From: Bdellovibrionales bacterium
Lineage (GTDB): Bacteria; Bdellovibrionota; Bdellovibrionia; Bdellovibrionales; UBA1609
Length of the DNA: 64,000 bases
Reading direction: 5' to 3'
Assembly: GCA_965199825.1 (NCBI GenBank)
Contig: OZ241329.1
Span: 1,248,001 to 1,312,000, forward strand
This document shows, in pieces, positions 1 through 23,478 of the stretch. A model generated the notes under the pieces. That model did not search any database. It was given only the letters and a program-made list of their open reading frames with translations, and was not told where the DNA came from. The stretch's first letter is position 1, and every line of letters starts with the position of its first letter. The translations under genes and the position numbers were made by a program.

Positions 1-723
1 ATGATGAATGTCGAGATGTCGCTGCTGTGAACAACGTTGACCATCGTCATTGATATGTGTGCATTGGCTCTGGTGATTGTGATGAACTTTGCGCTTTTTA
101 ATAGTGGATAGATTTTCAGTTTTTGAAGGCGGGCACGATTTCTTGAGTGGATCTATTTTTTGTAAAAGCGTTTTGACCGCCGAGACACAAACGTCATTGA
201 TTGTTGCGGATCGACCCAACTTTTGACTCATCAAATCTTTTGCTCTTTCGAGCTCGTTAAATTCATCTCCGCTGACTGAATATGAAACTTGCACCCTCAC
301 TGTTACACCTGCTTTACAATATCGTGCCCGCTCAGGAATTGCTTTTTCGGGTTGAGCTTTTGCAATCGCTTTTTCGAGGTTTCGTTTTGTACCCTGTGCG
401 ATGGGTAACCACTCTGCTGCATTTTCTGGGGTCTAAACACTACATACTCGATTGCCTTTTGAAATCGATATTTCGCCCGAAGCGATTTGGGTTTTCAACT
501 CAGGAACTTCGATGAATTTTTTTGCCAGTTTATTGAAAATGCTCGCAAGTTCTTCAGAAAGTTTGAGGTGTTTGGTTGAATACTCGAATAGTGAGCGGCA
601 GCCAAATTGGGAGTAGGTTTTGTTTCGCCATACAATTTCTAAAGCACTAAGTAATTCGATTTCTGTTTTACGGTGATTGGCAGCGGCTGACACTGCCTGG
701 GAATGTATTTTAGAATGGTCCAT
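1..723 (-). pseudogene. HNH endonuclease with DUF222-like N-terminus, interrupted by one in-frame TAG at 433-435; runs off the left window edge
   Basis: Manual translation past the stop stays open and co-linear with the 21559-22380 paralog: ...RVCSV*TPENAAEWLPIAQGTKRNLEKAIAKAQPEKAIPERARY...QCTHINDDGQRCSQQRHLDIHH. SD AGGAG precedes the ATG at 723. Confidence 0.85.
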
Positions 724-978: not shown

Positions 979-1066
979 GCGGGCACGACAAATCTCTTCC
1001 GAAATAATTAACCTAAACCAGTCATAACACCGCCGGAGGTTTCGCGAAATGCAAGCGGGCACGACA
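979..1066 (-). repeat. Two exact copies of core TGTCGTGCCCGC (plus strand GCGGGCACGACA at 979-990 and 1055-1066) upstream of the HNH pseudogene
   Basis: Read directly. Same core and same orientation relative to the HNH gene as the array at 20841-21323. Confidence 0.85.
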
Positions 1067-15253: not shown

Positions 15254-16416
15254 GAGAGTTTTTCTTTGTTGGCCGTGTGCCTTGCTCAAAGTCGCTACTC
15301 AATCGAGCTCTAATTTTACAAAGTTATGAGCCCAAGCTTGTGATCAAGGGCGACTCTGAGGCCGAAGATGTTATCAAGATGAAGGAGGGTCTAAAGGCTC
15401 TGCTTTCAGATCAGCCGGTGGACTGCGGGAGTGCAGGCACGGTTTTGAGATTTTTGGCATTAAGAGCCGCAAGGGTTAAAGGTCAACATCTGCTCAAAGG
15501 AACACCCAGATTATTTTCGCGTCCAATGGATGAACTGGTCGGGTTACTTTCGCAATTGGGGTCTGAGGTCAACATTTTTGAAGACCACATGATCATCAAG
15601 TCCCAAGGCTTTTTTGTGATGGGCGATATGATCAATGTGCGAAGCGAGAGATCCAGCCAGTTTTTGTCGAGCCTGTTACTCAACTGCTGGGATTTGGATT
15701 TTGATATGTTTGTCAACATGGGCTCGCAAATCGCATCAAAGGCTTATTTTGAAATGACTTATCAGATGTGCGAAAAGGCGGGACTAAAACCTTTTCGAAA
15801 ACAAAATGAATTGATGCTGGCAAAAAATCAAAAAATAATTCCACAAGAGTTGGTGATTGAATCGGATTTGAGTTCGGCTTTTGCTTTGTGCGCGTGTGCG
15901 GCGGTGGGTGGCAGTGCCACTCTTATTGATTTTCCAAGCTTAAGTCTTCAGCCGGATCGCCTTTTTGTGATGGTTTTAAAAATGATGGGTGTGGGTGTTG
16001 AGTCCCACGGCAATCAGCTTAAAATTACCAAAGCCGACACGCTTGTTGGAGTCGATGTGAATCTTTACGATGCGCCGGATCTCTTTCCGGTTTTGGCATC
16101 GCTTTGTGCTTTAGCCGAAGGGTCGTCGCGTCTTTTTGGAGCGCCTCAACTCAATTTTAAAGAATCCAACCGGATTCAAAAAACCGCAGAGCTGCTTCGA
16201 CCTTTAAGACCTTCGCTTGAGGTTCAGCACGACGGTATTTATTTTCCACAAGAAAAACTTCAAAAATTAACTCAACAAATTGAGTTTAACCCGGATCAAG
16301 ATCACCGCATGGCCATGGCCGCGGGTGTATTAATCCAAGCCGGCTATCCGGTCCATATCACCGAGCCTTCGGTGGTTATAAAAAGCTTTCCACAATTTTG
16401 GTCGTTTTTAACATGA
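15250..16416 (+). CDS. aroA: EPSP synthase
   Basis: SKSLLNRAL, CGSAGTVLRF, RPM, SSQFLS, KESNRI, DHRMAMA. ATGA overlap with aroB. Confidence 0.93.
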   Translation: MREFFFVGRVPCSKSLLNRALILQSYEPKLVIKGDSEAEDVIKMKEGLKALLSDQPVDCGSAGTVLRFLALRAARVKGQHLLKGTPRLFSRPMDELVGLLSQLGSEVNIFEDHMIIKSQGFFVMGDMINVRSERSSQFLSSLLLNCWDLDFDMFVNMGSQIASKAYFEMTYQMCEKAGLKPFRKQNELMLAKNQKIIPQELVIESDLSSAFALCACAAVGGSATLIDFPSLSLQPDRLFVMVLKMMGVGVESHGNQLKITKADTLVGVDVNLYDAPDLFPVLASLCALAEGSSRLFGAPQLNFKESNRIQKTAELLRPLRPSLEVQHDGIYFPQEKLQKLTQQIEFNPDQDHRMAMAAGVLIQAGYPVHITEPSVVIKSFPQFWSFLT

Positions 16417-18065
16417 TCACGGTTTTGATCGGCCATCGAGGTGTTGGCAAAACCAGTTTTTTAAAACGAATTCAAAATGCGTTCGATCAACAGGTTGAGA
16501 CCGTCGACCTCGACTTGCTGATCAAAGAGCACTTTGATGAGATTGGTGAGACTGAGTATCGCAAAAAAGAACACGCCGCATTTTTAGAAGCGATAAAAAA
16601 TAGAAATAAAAAAACATTTATCGCCTTAGGTGCCGGATTCAATTTTGAAATTTCATCTGGGATCGAAATTATTTGGATCCGGCGCGAAACCGATCGATGG
16701 GGCAGGATTTTTTTGGACCGCCCCCGACTTGAACCCCAGCTTTCGCCTCTTGAGGAGTATGCGGTGCGCTTTCGTCAAAGAGATGATCGCTTTCGCAGGC
16801 TCGCCCATCGCCAGTATATTTTGCGTGAAGGATCTTTTGATGAGCTCAAAGCCGACAGAGCTTTTTTTAAAATTGACCAAGAGCCGATGAATGGATCGCT
16901 CACGGTACTGCCCTGGATGCTTCAAACTTTGGAGAATGAAAAAACCGCGCGGTATCTTGAGCTTAGGGATGATCTGCTTGATAAAAGTCAAATTTCTCAA
17001 GCTTTAACTTTAGATAAATTATTTTTGATGACTCATAAAAAGTCCCCAGATTTTGAAGAGTCTAAAGCCGTTCATGATTGGCCACTCGAAAAATTTAAAA
17101 ATTCAAGCGGTGTGGTGTCGCTTCATCAGCGAAGCCATGACCTCAATAAAGATTTTAAACGTCTCGAAAATTTTGAGCGGGTGAAGTTTGCACCGATGAT
17201 CGAATCCTTTGAAGAGCTTGAGCTCTGCCATCAGTGGTGGAAGCAAAAACCGGATCAACGCAGTTTTTTACCCTGCTCGGAGGATGGACGCTGGAGTTGG
17301 TACCGGGCGCTCTTTGGGCCAAAAATGGAGATTGGGTTTTTTCGTTACGATGAGGGAGCCAGTCCCGATCAACCGACCTTTGCCGAATGGTTCTATAGCA
17401 GAAATTTCGAAAATCATTTTGCCGCAGTCTTAGGCGATCCTATTGAGCATTCATGGAGCCCCTCTTATCATACCAATTTTTTTGCTGGGTTTAAAATGCC
17501 CATGGTTAAAATTAAAATCTCCAAAGCCTCTGACCTTAAAATTTTAAAGTCGATGGGACTTGTGGCGGCTGCAATCACCTCACCATTCAAAAAACTTTTT
17601 AGAGCTGAAGCCGCAAACACTGTGTGCTGGGATTTTGTCGAACACAAATGGCAGTGGACCAATACAGACAAAGAGGGACTCAAAGTCGCTCTCGAAACAT
17701 TTCAGGAAATCAAAAATTGGGCGGTTTGGGGCGGCGGCGGATTGATCGAAACATTTAAAGACCAATTGCCCGAGGCCCAATACTATGGGGCCCGCAATGG
17801 ACAATTAAAAAGCGGAAAACAAAAAGAGTTTGATGGATTGATTTGGGCCTGCGGTCGAGGCACTCCATTTCAATTTCCGGTTAAAAGACCTCAGCTGATC
17901 TTGGATTTGAACTACACCGAAAACTCACCCGGTTTAGAGTTTGCATTAAGAACGGGTGCAAAATATTTTTCTGGTGCCACTTTTTTTAAAGCTCAGGCGC
18001 AAGCTCAGCAAAAATTCTTTGAAGCCTATTTACAAAAACGACCAAGGATGATCACTACTCTTTAA
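16413..18065 (+). CDS. Trifunctional shikimate kinase / type I dehydroquinase / shikimate dehydrogenase fusion (AroK-AroD-AroE)
   Basis: P-loop GHRGVGKT and RP motif; type I DHQase-like ELRDD, VSLH and VKFAP; SDH motifs LGDPIEHSWSP, TSPFKK, AANTV, NTD, GGGG, DLNY. ATGA overlap with aroA. Confidence 0.8.
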   Translation: MITVLIGHRGVGKTSFLKRIQNAFDQQVETVDLDLLIKEHFDEIGETEYRKKEHAAFLEAIKNRNKKTFIALGAGFNFEISSGIEIIWIRRETDRWGRIFLDRPRLEPQLSPLEEYAVRFRQRDDRFRRLAHRQYILREGSFDELKADRAFFKIDQEPMNGSLTVLPWMLQTLENEKTARYLELRDDLLDKSQISQALTLDKLFLMTHKKSPDFEESKAVHDWPLEKFKNSSGVVSLHQRSHDLNKDFKRLENFERVKFAPMIESFEELELCHQWWKQKPDQRSFLPCSEDGRWSWYRALFGPKMEIGFFRYDEGASPDQPTFAEWFYSRNFENHFAAVLGDPIEHSWSPSYHTNFFAGFKMPMVKIKISKASDLKILKSMGLVAAAITSPFKKLFRAEAANTVCWDFVEHKWQWTNTDKEGLKVALETFQEIKNWAVWGGGGLIETFKDQLPEAQYYGARNGQLKSGKQKEFDGLIWACGRGTPFQFPVKRPQLILDLNYTENSPGLEFALRTGAKYFSGATFFKAQAQAQQKFFEAYLQKRPRMITTL

Positions 18066-19347: not shown

Positions 19348-20835
19348 ATGGCATTCTTACTCCTGTTCTTTAGTCTTAGTTTCGCAACCGAAGTCTCTCA
19401 CTGTACTCAAGGCAAAATTGACGGTGAATACCTCGTTCGCTACCAAGAGACTTTAAGTCAATTTCGTACATTCACTTTGAATGTGATCTTAAAACCTGAT
19501 CGTGTTTTGTATCGACCAAAAAATCTCAAAGTCGATGTGATCAGCGATCCATTTTTTTCGGCACAGGCAGTCAGGCGAGTTGAACCCACCATTTCGGTTT
19601 TTTCAAATCGTTCTGAGGCCGACATGCAAATTTTTTTAAACCGCGGCGATGTGCTCTCTGTAGAAGAAAATTGTTTAGTTCATTCTTCATCACAAGCCAT
19701 CACCAATGATCCACTAGTGGGCAAGCAATGGTATCTCAATAGCATTCAAGCACCAAAAGCTTGGAGCAAAACAAATGGCAGTCATGATGTAACCGTTGCG
19801 GTGATCGACACCGGTGTAGATATTGATCACGAAGACCTGATTGAAAATCGTTGGATCAATGAGGCCGAACTCAATGGCCGCCCCGGAGTTGATGACGATG
19901 CCAATGGCTATATTGATGATGTCTATGGTTATAATTTTAACGGCAAAAATCCAGATCCTCGTCCCGGAAATTTGAGCGATGATGAGCATGGAACACATGT
20001 GGCCGGAATTATCGCCGCTCGCGGAAATAATGCCCAAGGCATTGCAGGCATCGCATGGCACCTCAATATTATGCCGTTGCGAGTTTTTGCAAGCGGCGGC
20101 GATGCAGCAGTTTCTGATATGGTCTCAGCCGTTTTTTATGCGGTCGATAACGGAGCTCGAGTGATTAACTCAAGCGTTGGAGCTCTTGCTCCTGCAACAG
20201 AAGCCGAAAAGCAAGCCTACACCTATGCTCTAAACCACGGAGTGATTCCATTTGTGGCAGCCGGAAATAATGGATTGGATGCGATGGCCTCTTCACCCGC
20301 ATCGATCACTGGCGTATTTGTGGTGGGCAGTACCGATGGATCAAGCGACCTTGCAAACTTTAGCAATTATGGCAGCAAAGTAAATATGCTTGCTCCGGGT
20401 ACCGCAATTTATTCTACAGTGCTTAATAACCAATATGATTATTTGAGCGGAACCAGCATGTCGACACCGATTGTGGCGGGAGCTGCAGCGCTGATGCTTT
20501 CGGTGAATAATTCGCTTAAAGGTTCAGACATTCAAAAATTACTTATGAGTTCCGCCTCCACAATTAAAGTTCACCAAAGAACTGGTGTTGGCTCGTACAA
20601 ATTCCTTAATGTGGCGGGTGCAGTACAGTTGGCACAAAAATCGGTATCATCAAAGGTAATGTCGTTTGATTCTGAAGCGGGGCAAAGTACTTTGTCCTCG
20701 GAATCGCCTCAGTCGCCTTCGACGGGATGCGGAAGAGTTTCTGGGGACTCTTCAAATTCTGTGTTGAGCGTGATGATATTGATGATTCCACTTGTGATGC
20801 TGATTCAACGGCGCAGGCGGGCTCGTTTTGTTTGA
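19348..20835 (+). CDS. Subtilisin-like S8 serine protease with C-terminal membrane anchor
   Basis: VAVIDTG, HGTHVAG, AAGN, GTSMSTP; C-terminal GCG + TM helix + RRRR. Confidence 0.93.
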   Translation: MAFLLLFFSLSFATEVSHCTQGKIDGEYLVRYQETLSQFRTFTLNVILKPDRVLYRPKNLKVDVISDPFFSAQAVRRVEPTISVFSNRSEADMQIFLNRGDVLSVEENCLVHSSSQAITNDPLVGKQWYLNSIQAPKAWSKTNGSHDVTVAVIDTGVDIDHEDLIENRWINEAELNGRPGVDDDANGYIDDVYGYNFNGKNPDPRPGNLSDDEHGTHVAGIIAARGNNAQGIAGIAWHLNIMPLRVFASGGDAAVSDMVSAVFYAVDNGARVINSSVGALAPATEAEKQAYTYALNHGVIPFVAAGNNGLDAMASSPASITGVFVVGSTDGSSDLANFSNYGSKVNMLAPGTAIYSTVLNNQYDYLSGTSMSTPIVAGAAALMLSVNNSLKGSDIQKLLMSSASTIKVHQRTGVGSYKFLNVAGAVQLAQKSVSSKVMSFDSEAGQSTLSSESPQSPSTGCGRVSGDSSNSVLSVMILMIPLVMLIQRRRRARFV

Positions 20836-20840
20836 CGTGG

Positions 20841-21323
20841 TGTCGTGCCCGCAGGTTTGAGCGGCGGGGAATGGTTTCCGAAGTGCATTTCAGTTTGTCG
20901 TGCCCGCTGGGCTAGGGGAGCAGGAGGATGCTTTTCGAACTTCACTTGAGTGTGTCTTGCCCGCTGTTGTAAGCGGTGGGGGAATGGTTTTCGAAGTTCG
21001 TGTTAGTTTGTCGTCCCCGTCGTTTTTTTGAATGTGGCGTTCGAAGGATCAATCGCAGCTCTGGGCAGTTTATCGTGCCCGCATTTTTTTGGGCAGCTTG
21101 AGAATGGCTTCCGAAATTTATGTTAGTGTGCCGTGCCCGCAGGTTTGAGCGGCGAGGACATTGTTTCCGAAGTTCATTTTAGTTTGTCGTGCCCGCAGGG
21201 CTATGGGAGCGGGAGGATGCTTTTCGAACTTCGCTTGAGTATGTCGTGCCCGCTGTTTCAACCCGCAACTCAAGGTGACGCCGTAAAGCTGAGTCGCAGC
21301 TCTAGGCAGTTTATAGTGCCCGC
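20841..21323 (+). repeat. Degenerate tandem array: nine copies of core TGTCGTGCCCGC at 55-70 bp period, upstream of the HNH gene
   Basis: Cores start at 20841, 20896, 20953, 21009, 21071, 21129, 21185, 21242 and 21312. A second motif TTYCGAA occurs in most units. Confidence 0.9.
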
Positions 21324-21518
21324 AATTTTTAAATAAAAATAAATAATCAAAATTTGTTGACACGTTTTTTACTGTTATCTTTGGGCCTGAGTTGAGTTTG
21401 CGAGTTGCGACGCTTTTGTTTTTCTGTCTTACTCAAATAAAATGCTTTAGTGGGCCTAATAGTCGTAGAAATTAAGACGTTAGAAAACCTCCGCCCATAG
21501 ACCAAAATCTTATTTCTC

Positions 21519-21558
21519 AAAACCCATGATAAGATCTTCTTTTAAACAGGAGATAGTT
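21519..21558 (+). promoter_or_regulatory. Extended -10 (TGaTAAGAT) and SD (AGGAG) of the HNH gene, conserved in the paralog
   Basis: AAAACCCATGATAAGAT..TTTAAACAGGAGA..TATG versus AAAACCCGTGATATAAC..TTTAAACAGGAGA..TATG at locus 1; the TG is 32 nt from the ATG in both. Confidence 0.6.
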
Positions 21559-22380
21559 ATGGATCATTTGGTTGTTCACTCTCAAGCTGTCAAAGCGGCT
21601 CAAGCTCATCGTAAATCTGAAATGGATTTGCTCAATGCTTTAGAAATTGTTTGGAAAAATAAAACTTTTTATAAGTTTGGATGTAATTCATTGTTTGAAT
21701 ACTCAACTCAGCAATTAAAACTTTCTGAAGAGATGGCCAGCATCGTCAATAAAATTGCCAAAAAATTTACTGAACTGCCTGAATTAAAACTAGGCATGGA
21801 GTCGGGTGATATCTCACTCTCAAAAGTCAATCGCATCGCTTCTGTTGTCACTCCAGACAATGTTCAACACTGGATAGATTTAGCCAAAGGCACAAAACGC
21901 AATCTAGAAAAAGAAATCGCAAAAGTTCAGCCAGAAAAAGCAATTCCCGAGCGGGCACGATATCAAAAAGCTGGGGACACTTTGAGGGTTCAGATTTCTT
22001 TTTCGGTCACGCAAGAAGAATACGCGGTTTTTGAACGCACCAGAGATCTGTTGAGCCAAAAATTAAAACGTCCCGCGAGTATTGGCCAAACACATGTTGC
22101 CGCCATTTATGAACTCAACCAAAAATTAGATCCACTTAAAAAACCGATCCGAGAAAAAGCAACGGGCACCACAAAATTGACACTTAATTTAAAAAGAAAA
22201 TTGCACCACAAATACGACAGTCAGTGCACGCATGTTGATTCAAAAGGACAGCGCTGTACCCAGAGGCGGCATCTTGATATTCATCATATTGTTCCTCAGT
22301 CACACGGTGGAACTCATACCGAAGATAATCTCACCCTGCTGTGTTCGGGGCACCATCGTGCCCACCATCGAAATATGTGA
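21559..22380 (+). CDS. HNH endonuclease with DUF222-like N-terminal region
   Basis: C-terminal QCTH...RC...LDIHHIVPQSHGG....NLTLLCSGHHRAHH; N-terminal GCNSLFEYSTQQLKLSE. Start set by SD and alignment with the paralog. Confidence 0.9.
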   Translation: MDHLVVHSQAVKAAQAHRKSEMDLLNALEIVWKNKTFYKFGCNSLFEYSTQQLKLSEEMASIVNKIAKKFTELPELKLGMESGDISLSKVNRIASVVTPDNVQHWIDLAKGTKRNLEKEIAKVQPEKAIPERARYQKAGDTLRVQISFSVTQEEYAVFERTRDLLSQKLKRPASIGQTHVAAIYELNQKLDPLKKPIREKATGTTKLTLNLKRKLHHKYDSQCTHVDSKGQRCTQRRHLDIHHIVPQSHGGTHTEDNLTLLCSGHHRAHHRNM

Positions 22381-22470
22381 CCCCTTCACAATCATTTTTT
22401 ACAGAGGTGAGATCAACACCTTGCAAAGATCTTTCAGGCCGCTCAGAATTAAAGCACAAAGCGAGGTCTC

Positions 22471-23478
22471 ATGTCAGCCAACCAATTTGGAAACTTATTT
22501 TGTTTAACAACGTTTGGTGAAAGCCATGGGCCGGCGATGGGTGCGCTCATCGATGGGTGCCCTGCGGGTGTCGAATTTGATCAACAACTGCTCTTAACTC
22601 AACTCGCACGGCGAAGGCCTGGCCAAAGTGCGGTGGTCAGCTCACGTCAAGAGGAAGACCTTCCCGAAATTTTAAGTGGGGTCTTTCAAGGAAAAACTTT
22701 GGGCACTCCCATACTCATCGTGGTTAAAAATAAAGATCAGCGCTCGGAAGATTATCAATCGCTTAAAGATCGGATAGGCCATGCCGATGATGTGTGGCGA
22801 GAGAAATTTGCACACGTTGACCCGCGCGGGGGAGGACGCAGCTCGGGGCGCGAGACTCTCTCAAGAGTGTTAGGTGGTGCGGTGGCCGAGATGTTTTTAA
22901 AAAGCCTGCACCCCGATTTAAAAATTGTGGTGGCGGTTGAGCAAATTGGTAAAAACAAATCCACAATTCCTCAAGACCTCACGCGGGAACGAGTGGATCA
23001 ATCTTTAGTTCGCATGCCCGACCTTCAAGTTTCAGATCAAGTCATAAAAATTTTAGAGCAAGCCAAGATCGATGGCGAAAGTTATGGCGGGGTAGCTCTA
23101 TTGCGAATTACCGGAATGCCGAAGTCCTTAGGCCAGCCGGTGTTTCATAAACTCAAAAGTGATTTGGCCTCGGCGTTGATGGGAGTCGGTGCGACTTGTG
23201 GTGTGGAGTTTGGATCGGCGGACGTCAGCCTTAAAGGAACAGAATTTCATAAACAAAATCTATATGGTGGAGTGCGTGGTGGGATTTCGACGGGTGAGCT
23301 TTTAGAAGTTCGGGTGAAGTTTAAGCCCACGTCGAGTATTTTGGATGTAGCAAAAAAAGGCAGGCATGATCCTTGTATCGTACCTAGAGCGTGCAGTGTG
23401 ATCGAAGGTATGGCGGCTCTTGTTTTGGCGGATCATGTTCTGTGGCAGCGGCTTGATCAGTTGACCATTCCGCGATAA
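22471..23478 (+). CDS. aroC: Chorismate synthase
   Basis: TTFGESHG, RRRPGQS, GGGRSSGRET, FKPTSS, GRHDPCI. Confidence 0.96.
   Translation: MSANQFGNLFCLTTFGESHGPAMGALIDGCPAGVEFDQQLLLTQLARRRPGQSAVVSSRQEEDLPEILSGVFQGKTLGTPILIVVKNKDQRSEDYQSLKDRIGHADDVWREKFAHVDPRGGGRSSGRETLSRVLGGAVAEMFLKSLHPDLKIVVAVEQIGKNKSTIPQDLTRERVDQSLVRMPDLQVSDQVIKILEQAKIDGESYGGVALLRITGMPKSLGQPVFHKLKSDLASALMGVGATCGVEFGSADVSLKGTEFHKQNLYGGVRGGISTGELLEVRVKFKPTSSILDVAKKGRHDPCIVPRACSVIEGMAALVLADHVLWQRLDQLTIPR

Follow-up and report, generated by a model that had tools for sequence, protein, structure and literature searches.

Why should a bacterial endonuclease gene be headed by a tandem array of short repeats? We address this question for an HNH endonuclease gene of a Bdellovibrionales bacterium (assembly GCA_965199825.1), found in a stretch of 64,000 nucleotides of contig OZ241329.1 (positions 1,248,001 to 1,312,000), which we refer to as the window. 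Coordinates are those of the window unless they carry the prefix C1. A first-pass annotation of the locus proposed three roles for the array: a processed RNA array for the nuclease, a set of iteron-like protein-binding sites, or REP-like satellites that the HNH protein propagates. The processed RNA array is the least supported of the three. The other two both fit, and they are combined in the explanation that we favour, in which ~27 cassettes of this genome are selfish elements of a homing-endonuclease-like kind with direct core sites at their ends, and the arrays are minisatellites formed from the binding or end site. We give this explanation tentative credence, stopping somewhat short of calling it probable. 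Judging from the sequence, it is likely that the arrays are DNA sites bound by the HNH protein and not guide-RNA arrays.

The array of the window (20841..21323, + strand) is made of nine same-strand matches to the core TGTCGTGCCCGC with 0-2 mismatches, starting at 20841, 20896, 20953, 21009, 21071, 21129, 21185, 21242 and 21312. The periods are 55, 57, 56, 62, 58, 56, 57 and 70 bp, and a mismatch scan of the window bears out exactly the nine cores and the periods first reported. The whole window holds 19 core matches compared with a shuffle mean of 3.0, and none of 100 shuffles got to 19. The repeat units are ~56 bp long with G+T-rich spacers, and there is a higher-order duplication by which units 1-4 resemble units 6-9. 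Tandem Repeats Finder makes no array call at the locus, because conservation is good only in the core. The proximal core TATAGTGCCCGC (21312..21323, + strand) is the left edge of the conserved cassette. It is followed by an AT-rich leader of 235 bp (21324..21558, + strand) and by the HNH gene, which encodes 273 aa on the same strand (21559..22380, with the ATG at 21559 and the stop at 22380). The leader of about 235 bp and the intact same-strand gene of the first-pass annotation are thus both confirmed.

Some further features of the array are worth recording. G+T-rich spacers are seen in arrays genome-wide and in the window (20841-21323, gene strand), with G at 25% versus C at 15% and T at 34% versus A at 26%, and spacer motifs such as GGTTTGGGTTTTG are recurrent in core arrays. 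A terminator-like hairpin at 21062-21081 (GGGCA...TGCCC, then a T-run) consists of a core plus the sequence preceding it, and in a terminator scan this hairpin inside the array is not beyond shuffle level. The last core has a similar arrangement (21305-21330).

A family of HNH cassettes in one genome

The genome of the window (2.84 Mb, 43.8% G+C, Bdellovibrio-like) has 27 paralogous HNH loci and one fragment, with 45-83% amino-acid identity, and 24 of the 27 are intact. Each cassette is ~1.0 kb long and consists of a core, a 200-bp leader and the HNH gene, which is its only open reading frame (ORF) and has the same core at its end. Upstream cores on the strand of the gene are present in 25/27 loci, in 1-27 copies per locus, and the remaining two loci, without standard upstream cores, have variant cores. 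In all, 161 upstream cores are on the same strand and 2 on the opposite strand. The exact 10-mer TCGTGCCCRC has 415 copies genome-wide, where ~5.4 are expected. Same-strand arrays upstream of HNH genes include 133 of these exact cores and another 52 are inside HNH units, which places 185/415 in HNH units or directly upstream of them. Of the others, 190 are in 12 other clusters (185 of them in nine orphan arrays with 9-34 exact cores each), 39 are single, and the remaining one is oriented against the HNH gene that it precedes. The pattern is genuine and strongly non-random, and it is larger than it looked at first. The association of nuclease and array is stronger than the first-pass annotation had claimed, and a motif scattered with no relation to HNH genes, which would have spoken against that association, is not what these counts describe.

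The window itself includes a second paralog, which the annotation had reported ~20 kb away with the core upstream of it. It occupies 1..723 on the minus strand and runs off the start of the window, and a single TAG marks it as a pseudogene. It has cores within the ORF at 320-331 and 129-140, and two exact cores upstream on its own strand (979..1066), at 979-990 and 1055-1066. In the relatives searched, the core forms no arrays. Core pairs separated by no more than 50 bp number 252 here and 0 in each of 30 relatives, and the core is therefore lineage-specific.

The core arrays vary in their build. The periods range genome-wide from 16-20 bp (the core plus 4-8 bp) up to ~100 bp, and in many arrays the units are near-identical, with blocks of identical units. 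The nine orphan arrays (C1:808626-810312, 1575771-1576469, 1355529-1355989, 1618393-1618836, 484398-484713, 751481-751747, 953713-953893, 246213-246857 and 1538409-1538545) repeat every 16-20 bp and, with mismatched units included, reach as many as 49 units. The unit CTCAAAGTGTCGTGCCCGC is common to several orphan arrays and to arrays heading HNH genes, and one 18-bp unit is shared by arrays of different loci. Block boundaries within several arrays are marked by a further short motif that has a small palindrome (AACACCGCCGGAAATT or AACACCTCCGGAGTTT), as in those upstream of p512867, p841266, p2566095, p564951, p1133427 and p1203249, and in the array at C1:246213. Single cores and small clusters are also found within long coding repeats at C1:204-240 kb and 1.326-1.341 Mb, assumed to be fibre genes, where they look like a conserved coding motif and not like members of the array family.

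The cassettes are intergenic and occur in either orientation: in 15 cases the cassette shares its strand with the upstream neighbour, and in 12 it does not. With these numbers we rejected the idea that the array is the 3' untranslated region of the upstream gene. We also considered single-strand transposition, which would leave a replication-strand bias, and found none (15/27 cassettes and 5/9 orphan arrays are co-oriented with replication). The cumulative GC skew of the chromosome is lowest near 0.96 Mb and highest near 2.35 Mb. Along the chromosome, 22 of the 27 HNH cassettes are at 0.03-1.57 Mb and just one is at 1.6-2.5 Mb.

There is a second multi-copy family in the genome, an IS200-like Y1 transposase (PF01797) with 14 copies at 52-85% identity and 3 distant ones. 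Examples are found at C1:247000-247539 and at C1:1243437-1243970, the latter ~4 kb before the start of the window. The motif AATGACATTGCCCC, or a close variant, is present in all eight Y1 upstream regions displayed. Only one of the 17 Y1_Tnp paralogs is beside a core array, where it follows an orphan array. A RAYT-like relation between this transposase and the cores was rejected on this ground.

From the last core to the gene, all paralogs are arranged alike: the core is followed by a gap, and then come a TTGAC box and its T-run, the leader, the block AAAACCCATGwTACACT, a ribosome-binding site (RBS) and the ATG. The length of the leader is kept among paralogs and its sequence is poorly conserved. 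At the window locus, the box is TTGACA (21357..21362, + strand), followed by a T-run and placed 33 bp after the end of the proximal core; it may be a -35 element or a site for a protein. The block CCCATGATAAGAT (21523..21535, + strand), the local version of the family consensus given above, resembles an extended -10 element and comes directly before the RBS AGGAG (21548-21552, + strand). The gap between the last core and the TTGAC box has a median of 28 bp, and the proximal core is 9-59 bp upstream of the box in 21/25 loci. The box itself is at -198 to -204 in 23/25 paralogs, with a distance of 206-212 nt from TTGAC to ATG. Homologs from other genera have the box as well as the block at -40. 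A promoter scan at the locus found no canonical sigma-70 site, and the consensus fold of 25 leaders has no pairs (mean z -0.48).

Core copies inside the gene and the edges of the cassette

The core is also part of the coding sequence. In the window gene, the 3' core TCGTGCCCAC (22356..22365, + strand) is contained in the codons CAT-CGT-GCC-CAC for H-R-A-H of the HNH motif, and it marks the right edge of paralog homology. The end of the HNH motif, G-H-H-R-A-H-H, is written CAT CGT GCC CAY, containing TCGTGCCCAY, in every intact paralog. Among the 24 intact paralogs, the H-R-A codons are CAT in 24/24, CGT in 24/24 and GCC in 23/24. Elsewhere in the gene, 4-6 codons are in use at eight other conserved Arg columns, and 3-4 at nine other Ala columns. 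There is free variation in the codons that flank the 3' core, and the C-terminal tails beyond it differ between paralogs in length and sequence. The constraint on the 3' core is at the nucleotide level and limited to ~10 bases.

Two more copies are found further 5' in the gene. An inverted core (21951..21962, - strand; GCGGGCACGATA on the + strand) lies in the codons for E-R-A-R, which are fixed in most paralogs. At this position, +392 (GAG CGG GCA CGA), GAG is kept in 21/23 and CGA in 21/23. In the variable linker, a third core appears as a forward copy AAATCGTGCCCGCC at +586 in subfamily B and, ~17 nt further on, as an inverted copy GCGGGCACGACA at +603 in subfamily A. The window gene has a degenerate inverted version of it with 2 mismatches (22162..22173, - strand), and most subfamily A paralogs have the exact GCGGGCACGACA. 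The inverted cores inside the gene are complementary to the cores of the array.

The same sites delimit the homology between recent copies. In recent paralog pairs, with 87-96% nucleotide identity, homology extends from the upstream core (at -231, or -292 in one case) to 0-45 nt past the 3' core; beyond these limits, neither the more distant array nor the DNA that follows the gene is related between the two copies. The pair p876415 and p904299 shares an identical stretch from +288 to +808 and loses its similarity ~10 nt past the 3' core; identity is 93% in the 5' parts and 75% in the leaders. The gene p37218 is a mosaic, with a 5' end like that of p639324 and the last 150 nt identical to p1170848. 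The identity tract of the first pair and the mosaic of p37218 indicate that exchange is ongoing, with tracts that abut the cassette ends. We find no clear swapping of core-bounded segments beyond these conversion tracts. In p535332 and p576436, there are degenerate tandem copies of the 3' end of the gene.

Taken together, the direct cores that bound the cassette, the freezing of the cores within the gene, the exchange tracts that end at them and the wide variation in copy number suggest that the core acts in cis as a DNA site of the cassette, in the simplest case one read by the cassette's own protein.

The protein, its relatives and its surroundings

The sole Pfam domain of the window protein is HNH (PF01844, residues 231-271, E 2.3e-8, 34.5 bits for a cut-off of 21.4), and the His, Asn and Cys columns of the HNH motif are invariant in the family alignment. 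The AlphaFold model has a mean pLDDT (predicted local distance difference test score) of 89.4 and consists of a ParB/KorB-type helix-turn-helix (HTH) fold at residues 16-126, a flexible linker at ~195-208 and the HNH domain at 209-273. Residues 16-126 match the DNA-binding domains of ParB, Spo0J, Noc and KorB with Z scores of 8.3-6.5 over ~100 residues (root-mean-square deviation 2.6-3.4). These structures make up 10 of the top 20 structural matches, and they are also found in a search independent of Foldseek. At the sequence level, Pfam HTH_ParB gives a weak match in 7/25 family members (best E 0.0014). Pfam detects no N-terminal ParB/Srx (CTPase) domain; the ParB-type alignments begin at chain residues ~115-150 and at model residue 16, and therefore there is no space for that domain. 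The modelled build of the protein is homing-endonuclease-like, an apparent HTH sequence-reading module coupled to a nuclease of the HNH type.

In structure, the HNH domain comes closest to those of IscB (Z 7.0, 58 residues), phage HNH proteins and McrA, and sequence searches agree. The match to the NCBIfam IscB model NF040563 is restricted to residues 206-271 and, at 30.9 bits, stays below the cut-off of 175; with the TasH structure 9w04, the alignment covers residues 210-273 alone (Z 5.8). The Nop family is not among the 25 most frequent of the 35 Pfam families matched in 25 family members. PADLOC reports HNH-domain matches only, to DpdF and to a type IV restriction enzyme. The label "DUF222-like" of the first-pass annotation has to be given up as far as Pfam is concerned: PF02720 (DUF222) is absent from the matches of the window protein at E up to 1 and from the 25 most frequent families of 25 relatives, and the lone lead in its favour, to be taken as a lead only, is one protein-atlas cluster with DUF222 on 12% of its members. 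We found no longer fused forms of the HNH protein, which is weak evidence. The family includes at least 235 protein clusters, which are labelled just "HNH endonuclease" or "McrA".

Homologs are present in 16 of the 31 genomes searched, with match counts of 0-35 per genome among the 30 relatives; many matches in public metagenome-assembled genomes (MAGs) are at contig ends. In the closest MAG (44-68% identity), forward cores are absent and the 3' end of the gene reads CAT CAA GCC CAT. A tandem array (CCTCAATTACAGG)n comes there directly after the stop codon, with a hairpin at its end. In that MAG, the loci L054, L055, L065, L077, L097, L098 and L112 have near-identical 3' ends, with contigs that break within the gene, and each shows the gene followed by GTTTGGTTTTATACTT, an array of CCTCAATTACAGG-like 13-mers and the hairpin CCTCAATTATTTGAGG. 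Other lineages have other repeats. Some have different tandem repeats upstream of the gene. One subfamily in G015 has ~40 bp direct repeats with the palindrome ACAGTTCTTAAGAACTGT on both sides, another subfamily has ~60 bp inverted repeats as its end structure, and a further one has a 3' hairpin AACTTTTCAAAA...TTTTGAAAAGT. The loci of relatives with end structures of their own are L005, L027 and L028 (G015), L019 and L020 (G015), and L002 and L013-L018 (G030). End-linked repeats are recurrent, and they are neither universal nor of a single kind. The first-pass annotation had named homologous HNH genes without upstream arrays as an observation that would count against its idea. Outside this genome, this is partly the case, as the core is missing there as a lineage-specific element and the repeats are of other kinds, sometimes downstream, or absent; within the genome, 25/27 paralogs go the other way.

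A study of Peredibacter describes 10-13 HNH genes at sites that are partly strain-specific (PMC13147790). In the literature searched, mostly at abstract level, we found no published description of the architecture reported here.

At the window locus, the upstream neighbour is a subtilase gene that ends 6 bp before the array, the other neighbour is the gene for chorismate synthase, and the wider region has genes for shikimate, menaquinone and DNA-repair enzymes. Pfam analysis of 22 ORFs of at least 150 aa at 8.8-33.8 kb gives housekeeping families for those with a match, and no cas, Nop, RuvC or transposase genes within ~12 kb, which agrees with the earlier remark that no cas gene is nearby. 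Rfam has no match in 20000-23000 (E≤1). Comparison of the variable segments with phage and plasmid sequences had been suggested as a check, and the array and leader match no phage or plasmid record. In 14 relatives, there is no HNH homolog within 1.5 kb of aroC. Further off, a 555-aa ORF at 16398-18065, between the genes for EPSP synthase and a hydrolase, has no Pfam match at E≤1e-5.

Known systems and rival explanations

The closest known counterparts are free-standing HNH homing endonuclease genes such as phage I-HmuI and the T4 Mob-type enzymes. As in these, the gene is small and combines an HNH domain, with its motif present, and a separate DNA-binding module through a flexible linker; the copies are multiple, patchy and intergenic, and exchange tracts abut a specific site. 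Unlike these, there are 27 chromosomal copies in one bacterial genome, with a module of the ParB/KorB type. The presumed target also differs, being a core of 10 bp that is dispersed, stands as a direct repeat on either side of the cassette, lies within the final motif of the nuclease and is amplified to arrays. With ParB, KorB and Noc, the likeness is at the level of the fold of residues 16-126 with its central HTH (Z 8.3-6.5, which is moderate), and in having multiple short cognate-like sites near the gene, some just upstream of the promoter as KorB operators are. The differences from those proteins and their parS, OB and NBS sites are the lack of a ParB/Srx CTPase domain and of a ParA partner, a non-palindromic core, the nuclease, and 27 paralogs.

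Repetitive extragenic palindromes and the interspersed mosaic elements built from them (REP/BIME), with their RAYT enzymes, offer another comparison: a short GC-rich motif, here ~80-fold over-represented, is clustered intergenically and tied to one gene family. In contrast to those, the core here forms no palindrome or hairpin and is arranged in direct repeats and not in inverted pairs on both sides of the gene, the enzyme is HNH and not HUH, and the Y1 family is linked to the core in 1/17 cases. The REP13E12 family of Mycobacterium consists of multi-copy DUF222-HNH genes whose products have a helical N-terminal domain and which are embedded in a repeated unit of ~1-1.4 kb. The cassettes share its multiple HNH genes, helical domain and repeated unit, while the proteins here are shorter and have no Pfam DUF222, and we know of no counterpart in that family to the core arrays and the in-gene cores. 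Classical insertion sequences differ in their ends: those of the cassette are direct copies of the core and not terminal inverted repeats, and its sole ORF is the HNH gene.

Selfish behaviour is suggested by the match counts of 0-35 among relatives, the many matches at contig ends, the intergenic cassettes in either orientation, the lack of an HNH homolog within 1.5 kb of aroC in 14 relatives and the partly strain-specific sites in Peredibacter, and the end-linked repeats of other lineages also speak for such cassettes. If the cassettes are homing-endonuclease-like elements, they might work as follows; the analysis establishes their architecture, copy number and boundaries, the nucleotide-level constraint on the in-gene cores and the folds, and we infer binding, cleavage, mobility and the origin of the arrays. 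The ParB/KorB-type HTH domain would bind the 10-12-bp core TCGTGCCCRC, and the HNH domain would nick or cut at or close to cores. Repair templated by another cassette, from core to core, would then result in both spread and homogenisation. Slipped or out-of-register repair at the end core would generate tandem arrays, and the arrays would be minisatellites of the cassette's own end or binding site because such repair expands it. Protein bound at the proximal core may also control its own promoter, which we propose because that core has a median distance of 28 bp upstream of the TTGAC box.

Several observations weigh against this explanation. Most paralogs are old (45-83% identity), and recent mobility must therefore be rare; the recent pairs could be the result of gene conversion between existing copies, not of transposition. 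No empty site is definable from the S8-aroC gene order in 14 relatives, because gene order around aroC is not conserved in them. The orphan arrays hold 185/415 exact cores without an adjacent HNH gene, and the nine of them show no HNH remnant other than one weak 34-aa match, so that arrays are able to exist and expand without a neighbouring gene. Arrays are found upstream of the gene only, with two exceptions, while a simple model of insertion into an array predicts cores on both sides. The core is non-palindromic, unlike known ParB and KorB sites, and a Z of 6-8 is moderate for a helical domain. In other species, the G030 copies have no arrays, and in a blind test flanking repeats exceed shuffled controls in just 5 of 37 full loci. 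The array has the same length in both samples that cover the locus (X1 and X2), and in the X1 and X2 contigs spanning the array we saw no informative joints.

The arrays could also belong to nucleases that no longer move. They would be operator-like or iteron-like sites of stationary, domesticated DNA-binding nucleases that repress or insulate their own promoter or organise DNA, and they would have arisen by replication slippage. Such a role suits the N-terminal ParB/KorB-type HTH fold, the proximal core at 9-59 bp upstream of the TTGAC box in 21/25 loci, the array periods of 16-20 bp, which are iteron-like, and a set of mostly old paralogs under purifying selection with 24/27 intact. We consider it unlikely, if still a serious contender, given that it does not explain why the core is frozen in the last codons and at +392, why the homology of recent pairs starts and stops at cores, or why arrays of up to 49 units are found far from HNH genes; a copy number of 0-35 among relatives is also at odds with it. 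The orphan arrays bring up the opposite case, a minisatellite or REP-like family in its own right, which host recombination or some other enzyme has spread and beside which HNH cassettes insert or persist with a protein that is inactive on the cores. The orientation of cores relative to the gene (161 versus 2) and the core embedded and constrained within the gene make this decidedly unlikely, and the sole other enzyme examined, the IS200-like Y1 family, is beside a core array in 1/17 cases and has a different motif of its own. What it would account for are the nine orphan arrays themselves, with 185/415 exact cores and no HNH remnant, the 18-bp unit shared by arrays at different loci, and the presence of other small repeat families in the genome.

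A guide-RNA role, in which the array would be transcribed and cut into small RNAs that direct the HNH nuclease as in CRISPR, TIGR-Tas or OMEGA systems, is improbable. The likeness is one of layout, with array, leader and nuclease gene on one strand, and it is superficial; the HNH domain is closest to IscB and Cas9-type HNH domains, structurally nearest to that of IscB, and the inverted in-gene cores are complementary to those of the array. The arrays are upstream of the conserved promoter-like TTGAC box, and their spacers are G+T-rich, duplicated or near-identical, and without phage or plasmid match. CRISPR repeats are ~23-50 bp long with unique spacers, compared with a core of 10-12 bp, and here the spacers are duplicated, often 4-8 bp and identical, with no adjacent cas; many arrays are simply 16-20-bp units with 4-8 bp between cores. 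In TIGR-Tas systems, the Tas protein has a Nop-type RNA-binding domain; here the TasH match is limited to the HNH domain. The arrays of those systems are made of short units with distinct spacers, whereas the array units here, of 16-70 bp, are near-identical or duplicated. Relative to IscB and the HEARO/OMEGA systems, the protein is below the NCBIfam IscB cut-off and lacks RuvC, and no structured omega RNA was found. Neither an Rfam match nor a conserved leader structure is seen, no cas, RuvC or Nop is among the Pfam families listed, and the N-terminal domain has the fold of a ParB/KorB-type HTH that binds double-stranded DNA, not that of an RNA-binding module. Least probable of all, we think, are contingency repeats for phase variation, in which changes in copy number alter the promoter context and switch the HNH genes. 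Tandem arrays of variable number are indeed found just upstream of a promoter-like box, and blocks of identical units indicate frequent slippage. The repeats are outside both the -35/-10 spacer and the ORF, however, the X1 and X2 samples show no difference in length, and the in-gene cores and orphan arrays are left unexplained.

To return to the homing-endonuclease-like cassettes, it is possible, if doubtful, that they are mobile DNA of a kind not previously recognised. Such an element would have HNH as its only gene and direct sites at its ends, the right one set in the codons of its own catalytic motif; a ParB-type domain would read that site, and the activity of the element would breed arrays of it across the genome, to serve as landing pads. 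If the proposed mechanism is true, it would be a simple nuclease-driven route for the multiplication of a gene within a bacterial chromosome. It would also account for the creation and upkeep of minisatellites, whose origin in bacteria is poorly understood, by site-specific nicking. The 10 frozen nucleotides in the HRAH codons are an unusually clean overlap of a cis-acting site and a catalytic motif, and a 273-aa protein that combines a programmable-looking HTH with an IscB-like HNH domain and has a 10-12-bp site could serve as a compact site-specific nickase. For the at least 235 protein clusters of this family in Bdellovibrio-like predators, the model supplies a name and a testable function.

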